A stretch of DNA of 64,000 nucleotides from Candidatus Woesebacteria bacterium GW2011_GWA1_38_8 (GCA_000993025.1 LBVJ01000001.1:29699-93698), one strand, 5' to 3'; shown: positions 6,129 through 42,128, counted from the stretch's first letter. Program-made: numbers and translations. The notes: generated from the letters alone by a model not told the origin.

Positions 6129-9065
6129 ATGGACAATAAAAAACCCTTTTATGACCCCGTTGATTCGAAAGTGAATTTTGTAGAACAGGAAAAACAACTT
6201 TTAAAGAACTGGTATGAAAAAGGGGTTGTAAAAAAGTATCTGGAAAAAAATAGTACTTCAGAAAAATACTTCTCATTTTTAGACGGGCCAATTACAGCAA
6301 ACAATCCGATGGGAGTTCACCATGCATGGGGAAGAACGTATAAAGACATCTGGCAGAGATATAAAAATATGAGGGGGTTTAAACAGAGATTTCAAAACGG
6401 TTTTGACTGTCAGGGATTATGGGTTGAAGTGGAGGTAGAAAAAGAACTTGGTTTTACGAATAAAAAAGATATCGATAAATATGGAGTTGCCGAATTTATT
6501 CAAAAATGCAAAGACCGTGTAAACAAGTATTCATCCATTCAAACCGATCAAAGTAAGAGGCTCGGGAACTTTATGGATTGGGATAACTCTTATTTCACGA
6601 TGAGTGATGAAAATAATTATATGATCTGGCATTTTTTAAAGGTCTGCTACGAAAAAAAGTTAATCTATAAAGGGAACGACGTTGTTCCTTGGTGTTACCG
6701 CTGTGAAACTGCGATATCTGAGCACGAAATTTTGACCGAAGATTATAAAGATGTTGAACATGCATCGATATATTTTTGTCTTCCTCTGAAAGACCGCGAT
6801 AATGAATATCTGCTTGTTTGGACAACTACTCCATGGACGATCCCTGCCAATATCGCTGTATCCGTTGATGGAAAAGGCGACTATTCACTAATTGAATTTG
6901 ACGGAAAGAAATATTGGATAATGGAAGCTTTAAAAACTGCAGTGTTTAAAGAGGGGGGAACTGTTATTAGAACGGTTAAAGGTAGCGAACTTGTCGGGCT
7001 TAAGTACACATCTGCTTTTGATGAACTTCCTTCAAATCAAGCATTTATGAATGATAAATTATTTCATACGGTTGTCTCCACAGATGCGATGATTATGCCG
7101 ATATCGGCAGAAGAAGGAACGGGGTTGGTGCACACTTCAACAGGAACCGGAGGAGAAGATCACAAACTCGGTAAGAAATTAGGACTTCCTGTTATGCCGG
7201 CAATCACTGACAGCGCGGATTACCTTGATGATTTTGGATCATTTGCAGGACAGAATGCAAAAAAGCATCCCGAATTGATAATTGATCACTTAAAAAGTCA
7301 TAACGGTGGAGATTTTCTATTTAAACTTCATCCGTACAAACACCGCTATCCCGCGTGCTGGAGATGTAAGAGCGAACTTGTCTGGAAACTTACCGATGAA
7401 TGGTATATCGCGATTGATCCTGTGAGAGAAGACATGAAAAATTTAGCAAAAAAAATAAAATGGATACCATCTTTTGGATTAAAAAGAGAGTTGGACTGGC
7501 TTTCGAATATGCATGATTGGCTTATCTCCAAAAAAAATCGGTATTGGGGTTTGGCTCTTCCTATTTGGGAATGCGATTGCGGACATTTTGAAGTAATAGG
7601 GGGATATGATGAATTGAAGAAAAAAGGGATCGAAGGATGGGAAATATTTGAAGGACATACTCCGCACAAACCTTATATAGATAAGGTTAAGATAAAATGC
7701 GAAAAATGTGGAGAATTGATGTCCAGGGTTTCTGATGTTGGAAACCCATGGCTCGATGCGGGGATAGTTCCATTTTCGACGGTTTCTAAAGATAACAGAT
7801 CAGATCCATTATACACCAGCAACAAAGAAGAATTTAAGAAATGGTTCCCTACCGATTTTATTACCGAAAGTTTTCCCGGACAATTTAAAAATTGGTTCTA
7901 CTCGGTACTTGCAATGAGTGCGATCCTTGAAAATGAGATTCCTTATAAAACAGTACTGGGATTCGGAACAGCCCTTGCTGAAGACGGAAGGCCTATGCAT
8001 AAGAGTTGGGGGAACTCAATAGAATTTAATGAAGCCTCAGAAAAAATTGGCGTTGATGTGATGAGGTGGATCTATTGCAAGCAAAATCCTGCTGATAATT
8101 TGCTTTTCGGATACAAAACTGCCGATGAAACCAGAAGGAGTTTTCATCTGATGCTTTGGAATATTTATAACTTTTTTGTGACTTACGCAAATCTTGACGC
8201 CTGGAAGTTCGATGATAAGAAAAGGGTGAATTTTGAAAATCTACTTGATGCTTGGATACTCGCGCGCTTAATTGAGGCTGTAGACGTTGTTACAAGCAGT
8301 CTTGAAAAATATGACGCAAAGACAGCGGTTGAAGGAATCGAATTTTTCGTTTCCGATATATCCTTATGGTATATCAGAAGATCCAGAGAGCGGGTAGGAG
8401 TCAGTGCTGAAAATGGCGCTGATAAAGACAATTTTTATGCTGTTTCACGGTTAATATTGGTAAATTTATGTAGAATTATGGCTCCGTTTACGCCGTTTTT
8501 GGCAGACGCTATATTTACAAATCTTACTAAATTACCGTCAGTTCATTTGACCGATTGGGTTGACGATGGTGAATTAAAAAGCTGGAAAGAAGATTTAGGC
8601 GGAGATGGGGCTATTGGAATATTGGTTAGGGAAATGGATCATATAAGACAGGTCGTTGAAATGGGGCATTCCTTAAGAAAAGATAAAAACATACCCGTAA
8701 GACAGCCACTTTCCGAAATCATAGTATATTCAGATCAAGATGTTAACTCAAGATTATACGATCTTATCTCCGCTGAGTTGAATGTTAAAAAAGTTTTATG
8801 GATCAAATCAAAGGAATTCAAAGTTGGGTTGAATACGATTATCTCTCCCGAACTTGAGGAAGAAGCGAGGACGAGAGAACTTATCAGAAAGATCCAAAAC
8901 GAAAGAAAGCAAAGCGGTGTTGATCTATCAGACATGATCAATGTAAAAAGCGAATGGCTGCCGGAAAATAAAGAACTTCTAAATCTTATAAAAAGAAAGA
9001 CACTTGCTGATAATATTCAAATATCCGGTTCGTTCGGAATAGAAAAAATTAAATTGAAAAAGTGA
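6129..9065 (+). CDS. ileS: Isoleucyl-tRNA synthetase (class I aaRS with CP1 editing domain)
   Basis: 978 aa. HIGH-region variant (PMGVHHAWGRT); editing-domain motif WTTTPWTIPAN; zinc knuckles (WCYRCETAI, CEKCGE); KMSKS-like HKSWGNS. Ile/Val/Leu family; the long N-terminal region and C-terminal layout favour IleRS. Confidence 0.8.
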   Translation: MDNKKPFYDPVDSKVNFVEQEKQLLKNWYEKGVVKKYLEKNSTSEKYFSFLDGPITANNPMGVHHAWGRTYKDIWQRYKNMRGFKQRFQNGFDCQGLWVEVEVEKELGFTNKKDIDKYGVAEFIQKCKDRVNKYSSIQTDQSKRLGNFMDWDNSYFTMSDENNYMIWHFLKVCYEKKLIYKGNDVVPWCYRCETAISEHEILTEDYKDVEHASIYFCLPLKDRDNEYLLVWTTTPWTIPANIAVSVDGKGDYSLIEFDGKKYWIMEALKTAVFKEGGTVIRTVKGSELVGLKYTSAFDELPSNQAFMNDKLFHTVVSTDAMIMPISAEEGTGLVHTSTGTGGEDHKLGKKLGLPVMPAITDSADYLDDFGSFAGQNAKKHPELIIDHLKSHNGGDFLFKLHPYKHRYPACWRCKSELVWKLTDEWYIAIDPVREDMKNLAKKIKWIPSFGLKRELDWLSNMHDWLISKKNRYWGLALPIWECDCGHFEVIGGYDELKKKGIEGWEIFEGHTPHKPYIDKVKIKCEKCGELMSRVSDVGNPWLDAGIVPFSTVSKDNRSDPLYTSNKEEFKKWFPTDFITESFPGQFKNWFYSVLAMSAILENEIPYKTVLGFGTALAEDGRPMHKSWGNSIEFNEASEKIGVDVMRWIYCKQNPADNLLFGYKTADETRRSFHLMLWNIYNFFVTYANLDAWKFDDKKRVNFENLLDAWILARLIEAVDVVTSSLEKYDAKTAVEGIEFFVSDISLWYIRRSRERVGVSAENGADKDNFYAVSRLILVNLCRIMAPFTPFLADAIFTNLTKLPSVHLTDWVDDGELKSWKEDLGGDGAIGILVREMDHIRQVVEMGHSLRKDKNIPVRQPLSEIIVYSDQDVNSRLYDLISAELNVKKVLWIKSKEFKVGLNTIISPELEEEARTRELIRKIQNERKQSGVDLSDMINVKSEWLPENKELLNLIKRKTLADNIQISGSFGIEKIKLKK

Positions 9066-15174: not shown

Positions 15175-16281
15175 TTACAATTCCAGAAAGAATTGTCCGA
15201 ACTCGGTTTGAGGTTTTGATATTCCGATATCTCTCATCCAGAGATAGGGAGAATCTGTGCTGCAACCACCTTCATTGCTGGGCAGTGCCCATCTATCGAT
15301 TGTGCTGTCGTTGCTCCAACCAGATGGGTCTTGAAAAGAAAGAATATTTCCATCGGAGGTTTTATATGTACAATAATGTTTTGGAGGATCGTCGTTTTTA
15401 ACAGATTGATTGGGTTCGGATTGGACGAGCAGTTCATCCCAGTCAAGAGTTGTTAAGGAGTTGAAGTCGGTATTTGGAGTTTTATCGATAAGCGTACCAA
15501 GATGCAAATGAACACCGCATTTTGGACCGCATCCGGTATTACCCATTTTACCGATAATGTCGGTGTATTTAACATTATCACCGGCTTTTGTGTAGATTTC
15601 AGAAAGATGGGCATAAAGAGTGTAAAGATTGTTTGCGGAGTGTTTGATGATCACAACACATCCGTAACTGTTCTTTGATATCATACATTTACCACTCTTG
15701 CTTGTGTCTGAAACATAAACAACTTCTCCGTCAGCCACGGGAAGTACATCATAATCACCTTGTATTTTATTTGCTGAAAAGTCGGTGCCGTTATGGGAAT
15801 CGTAGCAGGTAATTCCATAGACTCCGTTCGGGCAATCCTTCTTAATATATGTTTCGGTAGTAAAAGGTTGGAATCTGTTCCCCAATTTGTTGTGGTCAAA
15901 CGAAGCTGTCATTCTTTTCCAAAAGTTGTAGGCGAATTCTTCATGCGTCGGATTCTCCCGATTAGTGTATGGGAAGGGGAGATTGAATTTATTTGATTTA
16001 TATCTTCCTCTAACAATAAGATTGTCGTAAGATACGGAATTTTGATACCAGTTTCCATAAGAATCTTTTGATCCTGAAGTGTGAAGAAACATTCCAAATC
16101 CACCATTAGTAATGGGAGTGGGGTCAACGCACTCTAGTACTTTATTATTGTTAATGTAAAAAATAATATTGTTTTCTACTATCTCAACTTTTATCAAACT
16201 CGACTTCCCCAATTCAGTATTGTAGGTGTCAACAAGTCTGCATATTTCGTCTTCAACCCCTAATAATTCCACCTTTTTCAT
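15175..16281 (-). CDS. M23-family (LytM-like) metallopeptidase. Its N-terminal 150 aa look like the C-terminal half of a LamG/DUF1080-like jelly-roll (downstream part of a gene split by an in-frame TGA)
   Basis: M23 motifs HNGTDF, DGEVVYV and GNTGCGPKCGVHLHLG (HxxxD, HxH). The N-terminal region (FYINNNKVLECVDPTPITNGGFGMFLHTSG) resembles the end of a lectin/glucanase-like domain. No signal peptide of its own. Confidence 0.75.
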   Translation of the reverse strand: MKKVELLGVEDEICRLVDTYNTELGKSSLIKVEIVENNIIFYINNNKVLECVDPTPITNGGFGMFLHTSGSKDSYGNWYQNSVSYDNLIVRGRYKSNKFNLPFPYTNRENPTHEEFAYNFWKRMTASFDHNKLGNRFQPFTTETYIKKDCPNGVYGITCYDSHNGTDFSANKIQGDYDVLPVADGEVVYVSDTSKSGKCMISKNSYGCVVIIKHSANNLYTLYAHLSEIYTKAGDNVKYTDIIGKMGNTGCGPKCGVHLHLGTLIDKTPNTDFNSLTTLDWDELLVQSEPNQSVKNDDPPKHYCTYKTSDGNILSFQDPSGWSNDSTIDRWALPSNEGGCSTDSPYLWMRDIGISKPQTEFGQFFLEL

Positions 16282-16317
16282 ATAAAAACTCTCATACCAC
16301 TTGAATACATAACCTTG

Positions 16318-16665
16318 TCAACTGGGTTGTGAATAGTCATATCTAAATAAAAGAAATCTATCTGGTCCAGAAATTCCCAGAACTTCTACTTCTATCGAAT
16401 CAATAATCCAATTATTGTTGATGTAATAACTAAGAGAATTATAGGAGTGGAAAGGGTCTGCAGGCACTGTTATATTGTAACTTCCACTTAAAACAGAAAA
16501 AGCGGGAGGGTTCAGTACCTCTAACCAACCTAAAGGTTTTCCATTTTCACCAATGTTGTCAAAACTATCTTGAAATAACACGTCGGTTGATGAATAAACC
16601 ATTTTTGGTAAAGACAAAGAAAGAAATATAAGGAAAGCCGTTAAATGTAATGATATTTTCATCAA
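16318..16665 (-). CDS. Secreted N-terminal fragment (signal peptide + first half of a LamG/DUF1080-like domain); upstream part of the split peptidase gene
   Basis: Signal peptide MMKISLHLTAFLIFLSLSLPKMVYSS, then LFQDSFDN...GKPLGW..., typical of a concanavalin-like domain start. Ends at TGA 16318-16320, in frame with the M23 ORF 12 codons downstream. Confidence 0.5.
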   Translation of the reverse strand: MMKISLHLTAFLIFLSLSLPKMVYSSTDVLFQDSFDNIGENGKPLGWLEVLNPPAFSVLSGSYNITVPADPFHSYNSLSYYINNNWIIDSIEVEVLGISGPDRFLLFRYDYSQPS

Positions 16666-16729
16666 GGTATTAATGACTGCATCAACTTAATCATTTATAA
16701 TGTAAACATGTCAAGAATCGAAATGTATT

Positions 16730-17761
16730 ATGAAATCAAATAAAAAGATATTATTTCTGGCCAGACTTTTTATTCCGCACATCGGTGGTGTAGAGAAGCA
16801 GGTTTTTGAATTGAGCAAGCGACTTGTAAAGCGAGGATATAAAGTTAAGGTAATTACTGAAAAATATGACAGTTCTCTAAAAAATAAGGAAATAGTTGAT
16901 GGTGTTGAGATTGTCAGGTTTAATAAGCTCCCCGTAAAGTACTTCGGTTTATTATCAATATGGATATGGTTTTTATTCCACCTGAAATATTTGAGGAATG
17001 CAGATCTTGTACACGCTCATAGCGTTTATGTTTGGTATTGGCCTTTTAAATTTTTATTTCCAAGAAAGCCAAATTTTGTAACATTTCATGGTTGGGAAGG
17101 GATTTACCCAATTCCTTTTAAAAATAAAATAATTCGCAAGATTGACACCTTGCTTTCGAATAAGAACATTACTATCTCAGACTACGTTGAAAAACACTAC
17201 GGTATAAAAGCGGATGTTTTAATGTATACATCAGTGAATGTTAACACAAACACTGCTAATGGCTTGGTTAAAAGTAAAAACAGTTTACTGTATGTCGGGA
17301 GATTGGATGAAGACACGGGTTTGAGGAAAATCTTAAAATGCCTGTCGTTTTTAAAGAAAACAAAGATTCATGTCGAATTTTGTGGAGACGGTCCTTTAAA
17401 AAAAGATTGTATGAAATATGGGAAGGTGCGTGGTTTTGTAGATCCAACCGAATATTATAAAAAGTCGTTTATTTGTTTGTCTCCGGGTCATACCTCCATT
17501 CTTGAAGCATTTACCTACAAATGTTTGATTGTTACAACATATAACAATCCCGTAAAAAAAGACTATCTTTTAATGACACCGTTTAGGAGGTGGATTGTTG
17601 TTAGAAATTCACCCAAGAAATTGGCGGAGGAGATAAAGTATTTTTTGAAACACCCCGGAAAGGCAAAGGCGTTGACCGTTCCGGCATATGAGTGGGTGAA
17701 GACACAGAATTGGGACGAGGGGGTGAAAACATACATCAAACTTTGGGAAATAGAGAAATAG
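16730..17761 (+). CDS. GT4-family (GT-B) glycosyltransferase
   Basis: N-terminal LFLARLFIPHIGGVEKQVFELSKRL (GT4 N-domain); C-terminal EAF/sugar-donor binding region; 343 aa. Confidence 0.7.
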   Translation: MKSNKKILFLARLFIPHIGGVEKQVFELSKRLVKRGYKVKVITEKYDSSLKNKEIVDGVEIVRFNKLPVKYFGLLSIWIWFLFHLKYLRNADLVHAHSVYVWYWPFKFLFPRKPNFVTFHGWEGIYPIPFKNKIIRKIDTLLSNKNITISDYVEKHYGIKADVLMYTSVNVNTNTANGLVKSKNSLLYVGRLDEDTGLRKILKCLSFLKKTKIHVEFCGDGPLKKDCMKYGKVRGFVDPTEYYKKSFICLSPGHTSILEAFTYKCLIVTTYNNPVKKDYLLMTPFRRWIVVRNSPKKLAEEIKYFLKHPGKAKALTVPAYEWVKTQNWDEGVKTYIKLWEIEK

Positions 17762-17895
17762 TTACTTTGAAGGTTGTCATCACGCGAGGCAATAAAAAAC
17801 AGATTTTGAACCGGTCACAGTAATGTTAAGATAGCCGGATAAGCAATAAATGTAAGTGTCTTGCCTCAGCGTAAACAGTTTTATATACTTAAGTA

Positions 17896-18291
17896 ATGGA
17901 AGAGTTACGAAAAAAGGTAAATAAGACTTCAAGGATTGTCGATAACCTTATAAAAGTAGTTACTGTTATATCCTTTTTATTATTTTTGGTTTCATTTTAT
18001 ATATATAAATACAAAGCAGGCGAAATATTTAAAGATCAGGTGGTTCTTTGTGATGTTGTTTTAAGTCAGGGTTTAACGAAGCAAAATCCTTTGGAAAATC
18101 CTATACAATCAGCACTTTTGGGTGCAAAAAATAATTGTTTTAATAATGCTGGAAGAACAGCAGAAATGTGGGGAAAACTTGCTTTTATGGCTTTTGACAT
18201 TAGTTTTCTTTTACCTTTTGTTTACTTCGGAAGTAAGAAAGTAGTAAAGGATACGCACAGAAATATTGTAAAAGTACATGTATTTATTTGA
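17896..18291 (+). CDS. Hypothetical membrane-anchored protein
   Basis: 131 aa, one N-terminal TM (VVTVISFLLFLVSFYIY); no recognisable family. Confidence 0.35.
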   Translation: MEELRKKVNKTSRIVDNLIKVVTVISFLLFLVSFYIYKYKAGEIFKDQVVLCDVVLSQGLTKQNPLENPIQSALLGAKNNCFNNAGRTAEMWGKLAFMAFDISFLLPFVYFGSKKVVKDTHRNIVKVHVFI

Positions 18292-18330
18292 TATTGAATT
18301 AAGCCTAGCTACATTATAATATGAAAGCTA

Positions 18331-19317
18331 ATGTCCACACTTTCTTACATATTTAGCCACTATCTGCTGCCAGGTTATTCAAATAATCAAAAGGCAAAAT
18401 TACTGCATAATTCAACATTATTGTCTTTAATACTGTTTTTAGCTTTAGGAAGACTGATATTTCAAAATCTTCCCGGGTTGGGGATCGGAGTTCTGGGTTT
18501 TGCGTCACAACTTCCTGTAGAAGAGATAGTAAGATTGACCAATGAAAAGAGATCTCAAGTTGGTATGGGAAATCTTGTATATAACCCGACGCTTTCACAA
18601 GCGGCAAAAGCGAAGGGTGAAGATATGCTGGCAAAGGACTACTGGGCGCATGTTGCCCCTGATGGAACTCAACCGTGGAAATTTTTTACCGATGTTGGAT
18701 ATAAATACAAATATGCAGGAGAGAACTTGGCAAAGGACTTTTCTTCGCCATCATCAGCAATAGAAGCTTGGATGGCTTCATCTTCACATAAAGAGAATAT
18801 GCTGTCATCCAAATATGACGAGATCGGCATCGCTGTAGTAGAAGGAGATATGAATGGTGTGGATACAACCATTATTGTACAGCTTTTCGGAAAGAGATAT
18901 GAATCAAATATTGCAGCGGTAACATCCGAAATATCGGCAAAAACTGAAGTCGTGAAGAAAATAGAAGTAGAAATAACTCCAATTCCTTCTCCAACATTTA
19001 TTCCTCTTCCAACCGTTTCGGAAATAGTAAATAACAGAAATGACATAGAAGAAATAGGTGAATATACGTATAAGGAACCAACATACTTTCAAGTCTTAAT
19101 ATCACCCTTTTCCGTCAAAAAAGGGTTTTCTACAATTCTAACCCTGATCCTAATCATTGCTTTTATAATCGATGGTGCATTTCTGGTTAAAGGGAAAGCA
19201 TTGAGGGTCGGAGGCAGGACCTTTGCCCATATAATATTTTTGTGCTTAATATTTACTTTAATTATTTTATTTCAGTCGGGGGAACTAATGCCTCCCATAA
19301 CAGATTCGACAAAATAA
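18331..19317 (+). CDS. CAP/SCP/PR-1-like (YkwD-like) domain protein, membrane-anchored at both ends
   Basis: CAP core NPTLSQAAKAKGEDMLAKDYWAHVAPDG...YKYAGENLAKDFSSPSSAIEAWMASSSHKENMLSSKYDEIGIAVV (HxxP.G...GEN, SxxHxxN motifs). N-terminal signal/TM and C-terminal TM segments. Confidence 0.7.
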   Translation: MSTLSYIFSHYLLPGYSNNQKAKLLHNSTLLSLILFLALGRLIFQNLPGLGIGVLGFASQLPVEEIVRLTNEKRSQVGMGNLVYNPTLSQAAKAKGEDMLAKDYWAHVAPDGTQPWKFFTDVGYKYKYAGENLAKDFSSPSSAIEAWMASSSHKENMLSSKYDEIGIAVVEGDMNGVDTTIIVQLFGKRYESNIAAVTSEISAKTEVVKKIEVEITPIPSPTFIPLPTVSEIVNNRNDIEEIGEYTYKEPTYFQVLISPFSVKKGFSTILTLILIIAFIIDGAFLVKGKALRVGGRTFAHIIFLCLIFTLIILFQSGELMPPITDSTK

Positions 19318-22929: not shown

Positions 22930-23547
22930 ATGAAGTGTAAAAACTTGGACGTAAATAAATTAAAAGTAAGTTGTGAACCATACATAATCGACACTCCTAT
23001 AGAAGGAGTTTTTGCCGTTAAACGTCCAAGATACGGTGATTCCCGTGGCAGTTTTCAAGAACTTTTGAGAATTCCGGATATTTCCAAACGATTTCAAGAA
23101 ACACAGATAGATCAATCTCAAATATCTGTATCGAAAGTTAATGTCTTACGGGGGATCCATGCAGAACCCAGAGACAAGATCATTACACCAATTTTAGGTA
23201 GGATGGCGGCGGTGGTTGTTGATTTAAGGGTTGAATCACCGACTTTTAAAATGTGGGTTCGTTTTGATTTTGATAATACAAATCCTGAAAATGAATTTAC
23301 CACTCTTTTTGTTCCTTCAGGATGCGGAAATTCTCTTTGTGTGTACAAAAAATCCGATGATGCAGGGGATGGTACTGTAATTTACCATTATACCTACAGT
23401 AGTATTTATGATCCTAAGTGGTCGGGATCGGGAGTCAGATATAATGATCCCCAACTTGATATTATTTGGCCGATTAAAAATCCCGTTTTATCCAATAGAG
23501 ACAAGGAACTTCCACTGCTTGACGAATTTATTGTAAAATACCGATGA
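22930..23547 (+). CDS. rmlC: dTDP-4-dehydrorhamnose 3,5-epimerase-like cupin (RmlC)
   Basis: 205 aa cupin with DSRGSFQE and GIHAEPRDK region resembling RmlC active-site segments; positioned between rmlB and rmlD. Confidence 0.65.
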   Translation: MKCKNLDVNKLKVSCEPYIIDTPIEGVFAVKRPRYGDSRGSFQELLRIPDISKRFQETQIDQSQISVSKVNVLRGIHAEPRDKIITPILGRMAAVVVDLRVESPTFKMWVRFDFDNTNPENEFTTLFVPSGCGNSLCVYKKSDDAGDGTVIYHYTYSSIYDPKWSGSGVRYNDPQLDIIWPIKNPVLSNRDKELPLLDEFIVKYR

Positions 23548-35894: not shown

Positions 35895-37112
35895 ATGGGT
35901 TACTTTGACACAAGCATGTCGGGTGTAAAATGGATTGGATCGTTTAAGATATTGAGTAGAATATTGTCACTGGTAAGAATCGCAATTCTAGCCAGAATTC
36001 TATCCCCCATTCAATTCGGAGTATTTGGAATTGCCTCTTTAGCATTATCAGTTGTTGAGACTTTGACTGAACCGGGGATTTACGTATATTTGATGCAGGA
36101 GAAAAAAAGTATCCACAAATATATTGATACGGCTTGGGTTATATCAATTCTCAGAGGTGTTTTATTGTTTACCACCCTGATTTTTTCTTCAGGCATTATA
36201 TCCGGCTTTTTTAACACACCGGAAGTGAAACATATTATAAACTTAATTGCACTGGTTGTTTTAATAAGAGGGTTCATGAATCCCTTGAGGGTCAATTTCC
36301 TGAAACAATTGGATTATAGAAAAGAATTTTCAATCAATAGTTTAGTCTTATCTGTTGATATTGTTGTCACTGTCTTATCGGTGGCACTTTTTAAAGACCC
36401 TCTTGGATTAGTTTTAGGATTGATCGCGGGTGCCATTGTGGAAGTGATTCTTTCTTTTGCTCTTATAAAATATCACCCAAAAATTAAATTTGATATTCGG
36501 TTGGCAAAAAAAATAACGTCTGCGGGAAAATGGGTTACCGGTAGCACAATTTTCAACTTTCTATTTAGCGAAGGTGATGACACCCTTGTGGGGAAGTTAT
36601 TAGGCAAATACGATCTGGGGATATATCAGATCTCATATAAAATTGCGACACTACCTCTTACAGAAATTACCAATGTGGCAAATACAGTAACATTTCCGAT
36701 ATTCGTACAGATCTCGAATGAAAAGAAACGCATTGCAAAGGTATTCATAAAAACAGCTTTGATTATTGGCTTATTGTCGTTTGTATTAAGTACTTTTATA
36801 TTTTTATTTGCTGACACAATCGTTGCGATACTACTCGGAAGTGCATGGAGTGACTCGGTAGATTTAATTAAACTACTGGTGATATTCGGATTCATTAGAG
36901 CAATCGCAATATCCTGCAACCCTCTTTTTAATGCATTAAAAAAGCAAAAATATGTTACGTTATATACCACAATCTCATTTGTACTTATGGCAATGACAAT
37001 TTTTCCATTAATGCAGAAATTTGGCCTGAGAGGTGTAATCTATTCAGTCATTATATCCTCGTCAATCTCGTTTTTAGTGAATGTAATAAATGTAATAAAA
37101 GTACTCAAATGA
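35895..37112 (+). CDS. wzx: Polysaccharide/O-unit flippase (Wzx, MOP superfamily)
   Basis: 405 aa, ~12 TM. N-terminal KWIGSFKILSRILSLVRIAILARILSPIQFGVF is typical of the Polysacc_synt family. Confidence 0.65.
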   Translation: MGYFDTSMSGVKWIGSFKILSRILSLVRIAILARILSPIQFGVFGIASLALSVVETLTEPGIYVYLMQEKKSIHKYIDTAWVISILRGVLLFTTLIFSSGIISGFFNTPEVKHIINLIALVVLIRGFMNPLRVNFLKQLDYRKEFSINSLVLSVDIVVTVLSVALFKDPLGLVLGLIAGAIVEVILSFALIKYHPKIKFDIRLAKKITSAGKWVTGSTIFNFLFSEGDDTLVGKLLGKYDLGIYQISYKIATLPLTEITNVANTVTFPIFVQISNEKKRIAKVFIKTALIIGLLSFVLSTFIFLFADTIVAILLGSAWSDSVDLIKLLVIFGFIRAIAISCNPLFNALKKQKYVTLYTTISFVLMAMTIFPLMQKFGLRGVIYSVIISSSISFLVNVINVIKVLK

Positions 37113-39866: not shown

Positions 39867-42128
39867 ATGATACAAGTAAAGTTATCCATAATAATTCTCA
39901 ACTATAATAGCGATAATAATACAATCTGCTGCATTGAAAGTATTAAAAGATCACGCTTTGATACCCGCTACGAAATAATTGTTGTTGATAATAGCGACAA
40001 GAAGTCCTTAGATCGTAAACTTCGCACAAGTCACAAAGGTGTTGTATACATTAAAAGCAAAAATAGAGGTTATGGTGCAGGAAATAACCTGGGAATAAAA
40101 TATGCAAAAGGGGAATACATATTTATAATTAATCCCGACAGTATAGTATTTCCCAAAACACTCCAAACCCTATCCGGATATTTAGATAAAAATCCCGATA
40201 CGGCAATTGTTGCACCGAATTTGTATGACAAAAATGAAAAGCTCTTTATTCAGATGGGGTCAAGAGAGTTGACACCTATAAGAGCCATCTTTTCATTATC
40301 TCTACTTAACAAGGTATTTCCAAAAAATCCGGTATCTAAACGATACTACCTTTTTGATAAACCATTGGACTGCTTACGGGAAGCCGATGCCGTTCCCGGA
40401 TCTGCATTTATGATGAGAAAAGCTATTTTTGTAAAAGCAGGAAAATTTGACGAAAATATGTTTTTGTATTTTGAAGAATCGGATCTTGGTAAAAGAATTC
40501 GTAAAATGGAGTATAAGATTGTGATCAACCCAAAGGCAAAAGTAATTCACAAATGGGAAGCTGTGAAAGAAAATGAGAACTTGGGTAAGCATTTTCAGGA
40601 TAGCCGGCTTTACTATTTACGAAAACACTTTGGCATTGTTCCGGCATTGATATCCGAGGCTGTGTGCAGACTATCGTTTTATGATATTGCATTCATAATG
40701 ATATTTATTATCGGAGCATTTTTTAGATTTTATAAGATCGATTCGCAATTTTATTTTGATTCGGAAACGGCTGACAACCTACTTGTTATGAAAAACCAGA
40801 TAGAAAATCGCACGATTCCGCTCGTTGGACCTCCGACCTCTCACCCATGGCTATATTTTGCGCCGTTATTCTATTGGCTATATATTCCGATAATGATTAT
40901 CACAAAGTACGAACCTCTCTATCATTTTATATTCGGGAATATTATTAACCTGTTGTCGGTGATTCTTTATTATATCGTTGTAAAAATTTATTGGGGTAAA
41001 AAAACGGCAATTCTGACATCTATATTTATGTCGTTTTCCCCCTATCTGATCACATTTTCATGGTCAGCAAGATTTTATACCTATGTACTTCCGCTTTCCG
41101 CGGTATATCTGCATTTTCTTTTTAAGTCATTTCTGGATAGCAAGTATATATTTTGGTTATTTCTTATACTTGGTGTATTTTGCAGTTTTCACTATACGCC
41201 AATCATCTTACTGCCGATAACGATGTTAATATTTTTGTTAAAACGGATGAAAATAGACCGTTATGTATTATTAAGCGGAATTGCAGGGTTTGTGATACCA
41301 GTGATTCCTTTAATAATCGATGGCATAAAGAATAATTTTTCTATGCTTGTAAAATTTCTGATTTGGATTCCGTACAGATTATTTGGATTTACCGGAGTGA
41401 CTTCAGAAAAAGAGATCTTTTCCACAAAAACAAGTGTTCTTTCGATAATGACATATTTCAATTGTTTATTCGGAATTAGTAGTAATTACATCTTTATTTC
41501 TTTTGTTATAGCATCCATTTTCATAATCGTGATTGCGCGAAGTTTTGCAGCAAGTCATATGCGAAATATTTTTATTAGTCCTCATAATCAAAATACGGTA
41601 GTGACGTTATACATCGTTTTATTATCGCTAATATTTTTATTTCTGCACGGAGAGGCACCTATGCATTATTATTTATTCATTACCCCAATGTTATTTATCT
41701 TGATTGCGAAAGCATTGCTGTTGATGGTCGGTCACTACAAACACATTGTACTTGTGACATTCTTTGCGATAATTATTATTATGATATTTAGCGACCTTTC
41801 ACTTATAAATTGCCGAGATAAAAGTGATTCATATAATATTTTGGAAAAAGCGACGGAAATTATTGCCGAGGATTGTAATGGCTGTCATTATAAATTGAAA
41901 AGAATTGGAGAGAATGATGATTTCACAAGAGATTTTGCACAAAATTATCAATATCTTTTAGAGATGAAGGGAATTAATCCAACTGCTGTTGGAGATATAA
42001 TAATATCAAGTGAAATTCCTGAAATTGAATATACGATAGTAGAAAATATAAAGATGAAAGAATATCTGGAGGAAGAAGAGATTCTGTTCGATGAGAACGG
42101 CATTGTTATTTTAAAAAGACTTATATGA
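39867..42128 (+). CDS. GT2 glycosyltransferase (rhamnosyltransferase-like) fused to a large C-terminal polytopic membrane domain
   Basis: 753 aa. Residues 1-260: GT2 (LSIIILNYNS, IVVDNSD, INPDS DxD-like). Residues 270-700: ~12 TM helices of GT-C/ArnT-like character. Confidence 0.6.
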   Translation: MIQVKLSIIILNYNSDNNTICCIESIKRSRFDTRYEIIVVDNSDKKSLDRKLRTSHKGVVYIKSKNRGYGAGNNLGIKYAKGEYIFIINPDSIVFPKTLQTLSGYLDKNPDTAIVAPNLYDKNEKLFIQMGSRELTPIRAIFSLSLLNKVFPKNPVSKRYYLFDKPLDCLREADAVPGSAFMMRKAIFVKAGKFDENMFLYFEESDLGKRIRKMEYKIVINPKAKVIHKWEAVKENENLGKHFQDSRLYYLRKHFGIVPALISEAVCRLSFYDIAFIMIFIIGAFFRFYKIDSQFYFDSETADNLLVMKNQIENRTIPLVGPPTSHPWLYFAPLFYWLYIPIMIITKYEPLYHFIFGNIINLLSVILYYIVVKIYWGKKTAILTSIFMSFSPYLITFSWSARFYTYVLPLSAVYLHFLFKSFLDSKYIFWLFLILGVFCSFHYTPIILLPITMLIFLLKRMKIDRYVLLSGIAGFVIPVIPLIIDGIKNNFSMLVKFLIWIPYRLFGFTGVTSEKEIFSTKTSVLSIMTYFNCLFGISSNYIFISFVIASIFIIVIARSFAASHMRNIFISPHNQNTVVTLYIVLLSLIFLFLHGEAPMHYYLFITPMLFILIAKALLLMVGHYKHIVLVTFFAIIIIMIFSDLSLINCRDKSDSYNILEKATEIIAEDCNGCHYKLKRIGENDDFTRDFAQNYQYLLEMKGINPTAVGDIIISSEIPEIEYTIVENIKMKEYLEEEEILFDENGIVILKRLI

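Follow-up and report, generated by a model that had tools for sequence, protein, structure and literature searches.

A recent CGA-to-TGA nonsense mutation interrupts a putative secreted lectin-M23 peptidase gene in Candidatus Woesebacteria

Two open reading frames (ORFs) lie one after the other on the minus strand of a 64,000-nucleotide stretch of DNA from Candidatus Woesebacteria bacterium GW2011_GWA1_38_8. We refer to this whole stretch as the window. The arrangement raises the question of whether the ORFs are two genes or a single gene with a stop codon in its middle and, if the latter, what the stop codon means for the product. The original prediction described the ORFs as sharing one frame and as being parted by a single TGA and 12 sense codons, and it offered three explanations: a recent nonsense mutation, a base-call error, or readthrough of the stop. 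We recomputed the layout and obtained the same arrangement, with only the TGA at 16318-16320 and the 12 sense codons in the gap. The translation across the junction is ...RYDYSQPS-TGA-QGYVFKWYESFY-MKKVELLG..., in which QGYVFKWYESFY represents the 12 sense codons. The parts of the split frame are these:

16318..16662, minus strand: 5' fragment, 114 codons plus the premature TGA, with its ATG at 16662; it would contain a signal peptide and the first half of a lectin-like beta-sandwich
16591..16662, minus strand: predicted Sec-type signal peptide, residues 1-24, MKISLHLTAFLIFLSLSLPKMVYS, called from the sequence pattern
16318..16320, minus strand: premature stop, TGA followed by C, codon 115 of the joined protein
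15175..16317, minus strand: rest of the ancestral frame, 12 sense codons followed by a 368-codon ORF

The ATG at 16662 is the start chosen by the public annotation for the 5' fragment (114 amino acids [aa]). A TTG at 16665, one codon upstream, is an alternative start from which the fragment would have 115 codons. Read from the ATG, the joined frame encodes 495 aa, in agreement with the roughly 495 aa anticipated. The upstream piece had been expected to carry a signal peptide, and its first residues, MKISLHLTAFLIFLSLSLPKMVYS, do resemble a Sec-type signal; in the AlphaFold2 model described below, this region forms a helix at residues 2-16 followed by a low-confidence linker at residues 19-24. 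The 368-codon ORF (15175-16281) begins with an ATG at 16281, ends with a TAA at 15175-15177, and has no signal peptide of its own.

The second half of the joined protein contains two features.

15487..15798, minus strand: M23 (LytM-type) metallopeptidase domain, residues 289-392, Pfam PF01551
15223..15450, minus strand: Cys/Trp-rich C-terminal extension, residues about 405-480, found in all full-length homologues

We found that the joined protein matches Pfam Peptidase_M23 over residues 290-393 with 66-67 bits (cut-off, 28.7 bits; E of about 2e-18), which bears out the assignment of an M23 peptidase to a downstream piece that lacks an export signal. Both zinc-binding motifs are present, HxxxD (H290 and D294, in CYDSHNGTD) and HxH (H385 and H387, in GVHLHLG), and residues H290, D294, H352, H385, and H387 are invariant over 21-23 homologues. 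Foldseek searches with the C-terminal part of the model returned ShyA (6u2a and 6ue4), Csd3 (4rnz), and 2gu1 with E values of about 1e-7. By profile, motifs, and predicted fold, the intact protein is clearly assigned to the M23 family. The C-terminal extension matched no Pfam family, and it contains six residues that are invariant (W408, C431, W449, W458, C467, and W475). Taken as a whole, the intact product is a putative secreted zinc peptidoglycan endopeptidase with a putatively carbohydrate-binding beta-sandwich and a Cys/Trp-rich tail.

The beta-sandwich is the part of the protein in which the stop codon falls.

16000..16584, minus strand: concanavalin-A-like beta-sandwich (DUF1080/PF06439-related), residues about 27-221 of the joined protein

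This domain had been called LamG/DUF1080-like and had been proposed to extend across the junction. In a Pfam search at E<=1, neither the joined protein nor its two pieces gave a DUF1080/PF06439 or LamG match, and the intact allele P0094 likewise had no PF06439 match. Two homologues did match PF06439, the DUF1080 or 3-keto-disaccharide hydrolase family, above its cut-off of 26.8 bits, P0025 with 36.6 bits and P0012 with 31.5 bits. Their matches span profile positions 2-186 of 187 and map to query residues 31-218. In an AlphaFold2 model of P0094 (mean pLDDT of 78.5, with values of 77-93 over the N-terminal domain), residues 27-221 form one continuous all-beta domain. Foldseek searches with this domain returned CBM66 modules (TM scores of 0.63-0.68), GH16 laminarinases, and the galectin-like structure 1oq1. 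The lectin-like assignment therefore rests on the homologues and the structure model and not on a Pfam match of the protein itself. The beta-sandwich fold stood, backed by the PF06439 matches of the homologues, and the window protein fell below every Pfam threshold for this domain. Its N-terminal domain is best placed in the concanavalin-A-like superfamily as a relative of DUF1080.

The position of the stop within this fold can be read from the same model. Residue 115 is placed in a loop between the strands at residues 101-108 and 118-124, and in the homologue alignment the stop falls in a loop insertion of about 9 residues that is exclusive to the window's clade. The homologue PF06439 matches and the modeled domain boundaries both indicate that one beta-sandwich spans the stop, as had been proposed, and that neither fragment holds a complete domain; a complete domain within one ORF was not found. 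Since each fragment has about half of the strands, neither would be able to form the domain alone.

These results bear on whether the ORFs could be two separate genes, one for a small secreted protein and one for a cytoplasmic M23 peptidase. Gene callers and GenBank do annotate them apart (KKQ84779.1 and KKQ84778.1), and the ATG that begins the 368-codon ORF, 36 nucleotides (nt) past the stop, is accompanied by a weak GAGAG motif. However, a boundary between two genes would cut the beta-sandwich in mid-domain and leave neither piece complete. A comparison of the locus with its orthologues had been proposed as a test of a single ancestral gene.

A search with the joined sequence gave about 25 full-length homologues of 469-506 aa, covering 91-98% of the query. 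Two intact proteins of 495 aa, P0093 and P0094, are in the same 90%-identity cluster as the window protein, and their loci are syntenic with the window (GT4 / M23 / methyltransferase / IMPDH / signal peptidase / ParB / L27 / L21 / FtsW). Over 8.8 kb, the sister locus L003 shares 99.0% identity with the window; L002 shares 95%. At the site of the window TGA, L003, L002, and L016 all have CGA (Arg115). L016 is a JGI contig with the intact CGA allele and was the only contig returned by an exact-pattern scan of JGI metagenomes for both alleles, in a collection that is evidently short of most Rifle contigs. Orthologues from other species at 55-60% identity, P0003 (L023/L024) and P0002 (L017/L025), also have Arg at the aligned position; each is a single ORF that has its own signal peptide and the gene order of the window. 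The intact sister alleles, P0002/L017, and P0003 are all single ORFs of 494-495 aa with conserved synteny. A scan of GTDB genomes returned orthologues from other species only (L017-L019) and none from the window's species. Some of the L017-L019 records are titled "uncultured Gammaproteobacteria," which is at odds with their synteny.

Throughout this comparison, the orthologues were single uninterrupted genes (469-503 aa) at a syntenic locus, and no two-gene orthologues were found. Together with the single lectin-like domain across the junction, this supports the conclusion that the two pieces were once one gene. Because the outgroup orthologues have Arg at the site, the alignment shows the window TGA to be the derived state; a single coding-strand C-to-T transition changed the CGA. 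Between the window and L003, the N-terminal 230 codons differ by the stop and two synonymous changes, with no nonsynonymous change. Every orthologue being a single gene, and the N-terminal half of the sister strain differing by only the nonsense base and two synonymous changes, both argue against two separate genes, a reading to which we give hardly any credence.

A single ancestral gene could still appear split if the TGA were a sequencing or assembly error and the true genome read CGA, with the gene intact. Only a single base is involved, and the intact allele is known in related assemblies. However, the identical TGA is found in 11 contigs (L001 and L004-L013) from at least seven samples or runs and several assemblers. 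The contigs come from GenBank metagenome-assembled genomes (MAGs; GCA_000992425.1 and GCA_000992825.1), three SRR-based ENA assemblies, three ANAN16 assemblies, one JGI metagenome, and ERZ27254731, and their names (k127 and k141 contigs, ANAN16 scaffolds, GenBank MAGs, and a JGI assembly) indicate differing assembly pipelines. In addition, the index of the sequence collection lists the 114-aa fragment in 43 blocks. Many of the TGA samples represent one aquifer population at different times, which makes the base call reproducible and does not amount to independent mutation events. Of the 14 contigs of this allele type that were retrieved, 11 carry TGA, most of them from Rifle aquifer samples, a share that was obtained from a search keyed, for most contigs, on the truncated fragment. 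The recurrence of the TGA across so many independent assemblies excludes a base-call error, and we regard an intact gene hidden by any sequencing or assembly fault as very improbable. Thus, the CGA-to-TGA nonsense mutation is genuine, and the TGA allele predominates in the public assemblies retrieved, which are mostly from Rifle. The approach is of use beyond this locus: even when no reads are at hand, independent assemblies and the alleles of sister strains can settle the nature of a single in-frame stop in a MAG.

A genuine TGA could still be translated if it were decoded as an amino acid, either as selenocysteine or through a code 4 or code 25 reassignment. TGA is reassigned in some lineages of the candidate phyla radiation (Gracilibacteria and Absconditabacteria), and such relatives among the Patescibacteria give the idea some plausibility. 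Against it, the 50 main ORFs of the window end with TAA (27), TGA (16), or TAG (7), and coding is dense under the standard bacterial code. After a TGA stop, the next gene begins within a few bases or shares bases with the stop, and several such overlaps read ATGA or GTGA (among them those at 9062-9065, 23544-23547, 37109-37112, and 42125-42128), and so the statement that TGA is a normal stop elsewhere in the window was upheld. The homologous residue is Arg (CGA) and not Cys, Gly, or Trp. The window has four tRNAs, which include neither a suppressor nor tRNA-Sec, and it gave no further Rfam family. A 96-nt segment that spans the TGA and continues past it showed no stable stimulatory or SECIS-like structure (minimum free energy of -11.5 kcal/mol; z-score of +0.70 relative to shuffled sequences), and an Rfam scan of 15900-16750 by E value gave only a chance nos_TCE match (E=0.15). 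The in-frame TGA is kept in none of the orthologues or sister strains examined. Within the 64-kb window, the M23 gene is the only one split by a single in-frame TGA. A second candidate for a TGA-split gene, a 131-aa ORF followed by a CAP-domain ORF (17896-19317), was rejected: its gap is interrupted by three in-frame TGAs, and in another species the two ORFs do not share a frame. Programmed readthrough or recoding thus has no support, and decoding of this TGA as a sense codon is so improbable that we set it aside.

We then considered the age of the mutation. The omega value between the intact strains L002 and L003 is 0.20, so that the intact lineages are normally under purifying selection. Because only two synonymous changes accompany the stop in the N-terminal domain relative to L003, the nonsense mutation is very recent. 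The C-terminal part has 26 differences from L003, most of them within a 47-nt block at codons 357-369; this block agrees with another allele type and resembles a segment imported by recombination. The C-terminal parts that accompany the TGA allele are of at least three haplotypes (that of the window, P0088, and P0090), which could reflect persistence of the allele through recombination after the mutation or else chimeric consensus assemblies. Most TGA alleles have no second disabling mutation, and their M23 catalytic residues are intact. Two low-coverage TGA contigs have each lost invariant residues through an in-frame deletion (TLDWDEL in L013/P0086; TDIIG in P0091), which may be a weak hint of relaxed constraint. 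With a mutation this recent, the intact downstream frame is uninformative about whether function has been retained.

Another possibility is that the allele is a functional hypomorph, in which a near-cognate tRNA, such as tRNA-Trp, would now and then read through TGA-C, so that the secreted enzyme would be made at full length at a level of a few percent. Such an allele would be tolerated, or even favored, because it keeps the dose of a potentially dangerous lytic enzyme low. In E. coli, the leakiest stop context is TGA with a C after it. Readthrough of UGA in wild-type E. coli is about 2-4%, with Trp-tRNA competing with RF2 (PMC10570021). The stop lies, according to the model, in a variable loop specific to the clade, a position that may accept any residue; the remaining frame is intact with its catalytic residues conserved, and the TGA is present on several downstream haplotypes. 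However, there is neither a stimulatory RNA structure nor an Rfam match near the stop, the TGA is conserved in no orthologue or sister strain, the mutation is too young for the intact downstream frame to show selection, and the in-frame deletions in two TGA contigs hint at relaxed constraint. We consider a functional low-dose allele unlikely.

What we favor instead is that one ancestral gene for a secreted lectin-M23 enzyme underwent a change of Arg115 from CGA to TGA and that the window carries a recent nonsense allele, null or strongly hypomorphic, that is a young pseudogene. We hold this to be the probable explanation, with good though not complete confidence. Translation would normally end at the TGA and would give an exported fragment of 114 residues with about half of the beta-sandwich, which could not fold and would probably be degraded. 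Re-initiation at the ATG at 16281, 36 nt downstream, would give a product without the export signal or the first half of the lectin-like domain, and this product would be unable to reach the peptidoglycan because it has no export signal. Since neither fragment product would be expected to work, the allele would be null or a strong hypomorph, and passive leakiness of the TGA might yield at most a few percent of full-length protein. Weighing against this explanation are the absence of a second disabling mutation from most TGA alleles, the several C-terminal haplotypes that carry the TGA, and the leaky TGA-C context in a variable surface loop, through which some functional full-length protein may be made. 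Of the three explanations first offered, then, a real and recent nonsense mutation is shown by the CGA in the sister strains, the base-call error fell to the recurrence of the TGA, and programmed readthrough went unsupported.

The strains also differ in the region around the stop, next to which lies a divergently oriented gene.

16730..17761, plus strand: GT4 glycosyltransferase gene, divergent from the M23 gene

The GT4 gene and the lectin half of the peptidase gene make up a variable cassette (about 15994-17877 in the window). In L014 and L015, about 0.8 kb takes the place of this cassette; it lacks a GT4 gene and encodes a lectin allele of the P0004 type, which is quite unlike that of the window. 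The M23 half is still 85-99% identical. In L002, the GT4 protein is 65% identical to that of the window, despite 95% identity of the surrounding DNA. A GT4 neighbor is present at all four loci with window-type lectin alleles, and the type of lectin allele covaries with the presence of the adjacent glycosyltransferase. The alternative lectin allele of L014 has a 34-bp frameshifting deletion at codons 107-118, an independent disruption near the homologous position. These observations, which come from single contigs, suggest a hypervariable surface-glycan/lectin cassette with recurring loss-of-function alleles.

It is conceivable, then, that the TGA is one of several recurrent and possibly adaptive knock-downs of the lectin module within a strain-variable GT4-lectin cassette. 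Pointing in this direction are the disruption of two lectin alleles at nearly the same place and the presence of the TGA on several downstream haplotypes. If this were true, it would fit a pair consisting of a surface glycan and a glycan-targeted autolysin on which diversifying or frequency-dependent selection acts, as might be exerted by phage or by host interaction in an episymbiotic bacterium, and leaky TGA-C readthrough would set a low dose of the enzyme. We regard this as quite unlikely and offer it tentatively. The young nonsense allele that we favor amounts to routine strain-level gene loss, in which the interruption is an ordinary nonsense allele: one strain population would be left with little or none of a secreted lectin-M23 cell-wall hydrolase, whereas purifying selection maintains the enzyme in its relatives.

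The main practical value of the finding lies in the correction of public annotation. The 114-aa fragment is identical to KKQ84779.1, KKQ50779.1, KKQ56234.1, and KKQ74961.1, all recorded as "hypothetical protein" of Candidatus Woesebacteria, and KKQ84778.1 and related records, annotated as "Peptidase M23," match the 368-aa ORF exactly or almost exactly. The source MAGs are four from the Rifle aquifer (GW2011_GWA1_38_8, GWB1_38_5, GWC1_38_13, and GWD1_38_10). GenBank and UniProt thus list the halves as separate proteins in four Candidatus Woesebacteria MAGs, and these records should be flagged as one disrupted gene. A search of the literature library found no paper that joins Woesebacteria with M23 and peptidoglycan.

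Compared with known M23/LytM-type peptidases such as Vibrio cholerae ShyA, Helicobacter pylori Csd3, and E. coli MepM, the intact protein is alike in its PF01551 domain, zinc motifs, fold, and predicted secretion. It differs from ShyA, MepM, and NlpD in its accessory module, which is predicted to be concanavalin-A-like and not a LysM or a coiled-coil/"domain 1" module, and in having an additional conserved Cys/Trp-rich tail outside any Pfam family. In the window strain, unlike in these peptidases, the gene is interrupted by a premature stop. The beta-sandwich fold of the P0094 model is shared with PF06439, CBM66, GH16, and galectin-like YesU proteins. In contrast to PF06439 members, the window protein has no match to the profile at E<=1, and its clade has the insertion of about 9 residues in the loop where the stop falls.

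Compared with ordinary bacterial nonsense pseudogenes, the window allele is distinct in being known only from metagenome assemblies of an uncultivated bacterium, in being carried by most of the contigs retrieved (11 of 14, in a fragment-keyed search), and in being too young to show secondary decay. In other respects it resembles them: it is due to a single transition, it has intact sister alleles, its reading frame is cut inside a domain, and it shows no recoding signal.

Across strains, the part of the window that holds the GT4 glycosyltransferase gene and the lectin half of the divergently transcribed peptidase gene behaves as a strain-variable cassette. The segment and the glycosyltransferase gene lie as follows:

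15994-17877, variable segment containing the GT4 gene and, on the minus strand, peptidase codons 1-223
16730-17761, plus strand, GT4 glycosyltransferase gene

In two strains with another lectin allele, approximately 0.8 kb (L014:93-876 and L015:3239-4056) stands in place of window 15994-17877. This replacement codes for a very different lectin-domain allele, the P0004 type, and contains no GT4 glycosyltransferase. The breakpoint of the cassette is the boundary between the lectin and M23 domains. We found a GT4 neighbor at every locus with the window-type lectin: the window itself, the sister-strain loci L002 and L003, and L023/L024 and L025 from other species.

Among strains with the window-type lectin, the GT4 protein of L002 (L002:396-1418) is only 65% identical to that of the window, while the surrounding DNA is otherwise approximately 95% identical. 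When we compared the peptidase gene between L002 and L003, dS was 0.41 in the lectin half versus 0.03 in the M23 half. That divergence rises so steeply at GT4 and the lectin half suggests allelic exchange or diversifying selection.

A short block of divergence separates the window from L003, which carries the intact sister allele:

15556-15594, divergent block between the window and L003 within the peptidase gene (codons 357-369)

Here, 14 nucleotide differences are clustered in 47 nt. The window sequence at these codons, YTKAGDNVKYTDII, is common to the window and the P0004-type alleles, and this shared sequence points to a short recombination tract.

We also observed that the alternative lectin allele in L014 (L014:245-1695; ENA ERZ28563735, scaffold_3124) is itself broken, by a frameshifting deletion of 34 bp. 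As a result, the invariant D-R motif (codons ~107 to 118) is lost and the gene is left as two open reading frames of 115 and 364 aa (proteins P0101 and P0096). The split site nearly coincides with the position of the premature TGA in the window. The deletion was seen in a single contig and may be an assembly artifact.

Past the M23 domain, the peptidase carries a conserved extension:

15223-15450, minus strand, C-terminal extension, residues ~405 to 480 of the joined protein

The extension is found in all full-length homologues, with invariant Cys and Trp residues at W408, C431, W449, W458, C467, and W475. No Pfam family matches these residues (~405 to 480), and the structure model of the extension is of only moderate confidence.

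We considered whether a neighboring pair of open reading frames was a second split gene:

17896-19317, plus strand, membrane-protein ORF (131 aa) and CAP-domain ORF (328 aa)

The two share one frame across a 39-nt gap free of TAA and TAG. However, the gap holds three in-frame TGAs, and the counterparts in L023, from another species, are not in one frame. Thus, a split gene is ruled out, and these are merely adjacent genes.

Lastly, the GTDB genome_contigs MAG records behind L017, L018, and L019 (CAZAUT01, CAZSNC01, and CAZTGB01) are titled "uncultured Gammaproteobacteria bacterium," labels that look wrong. L018 and L019 encode close peptidase homologues, and the gene order of L017/L025 (L21, L27, ParB, methyltransferase, M23, GT4, and CAP) matches that of the Woesebacteria locus in the window.
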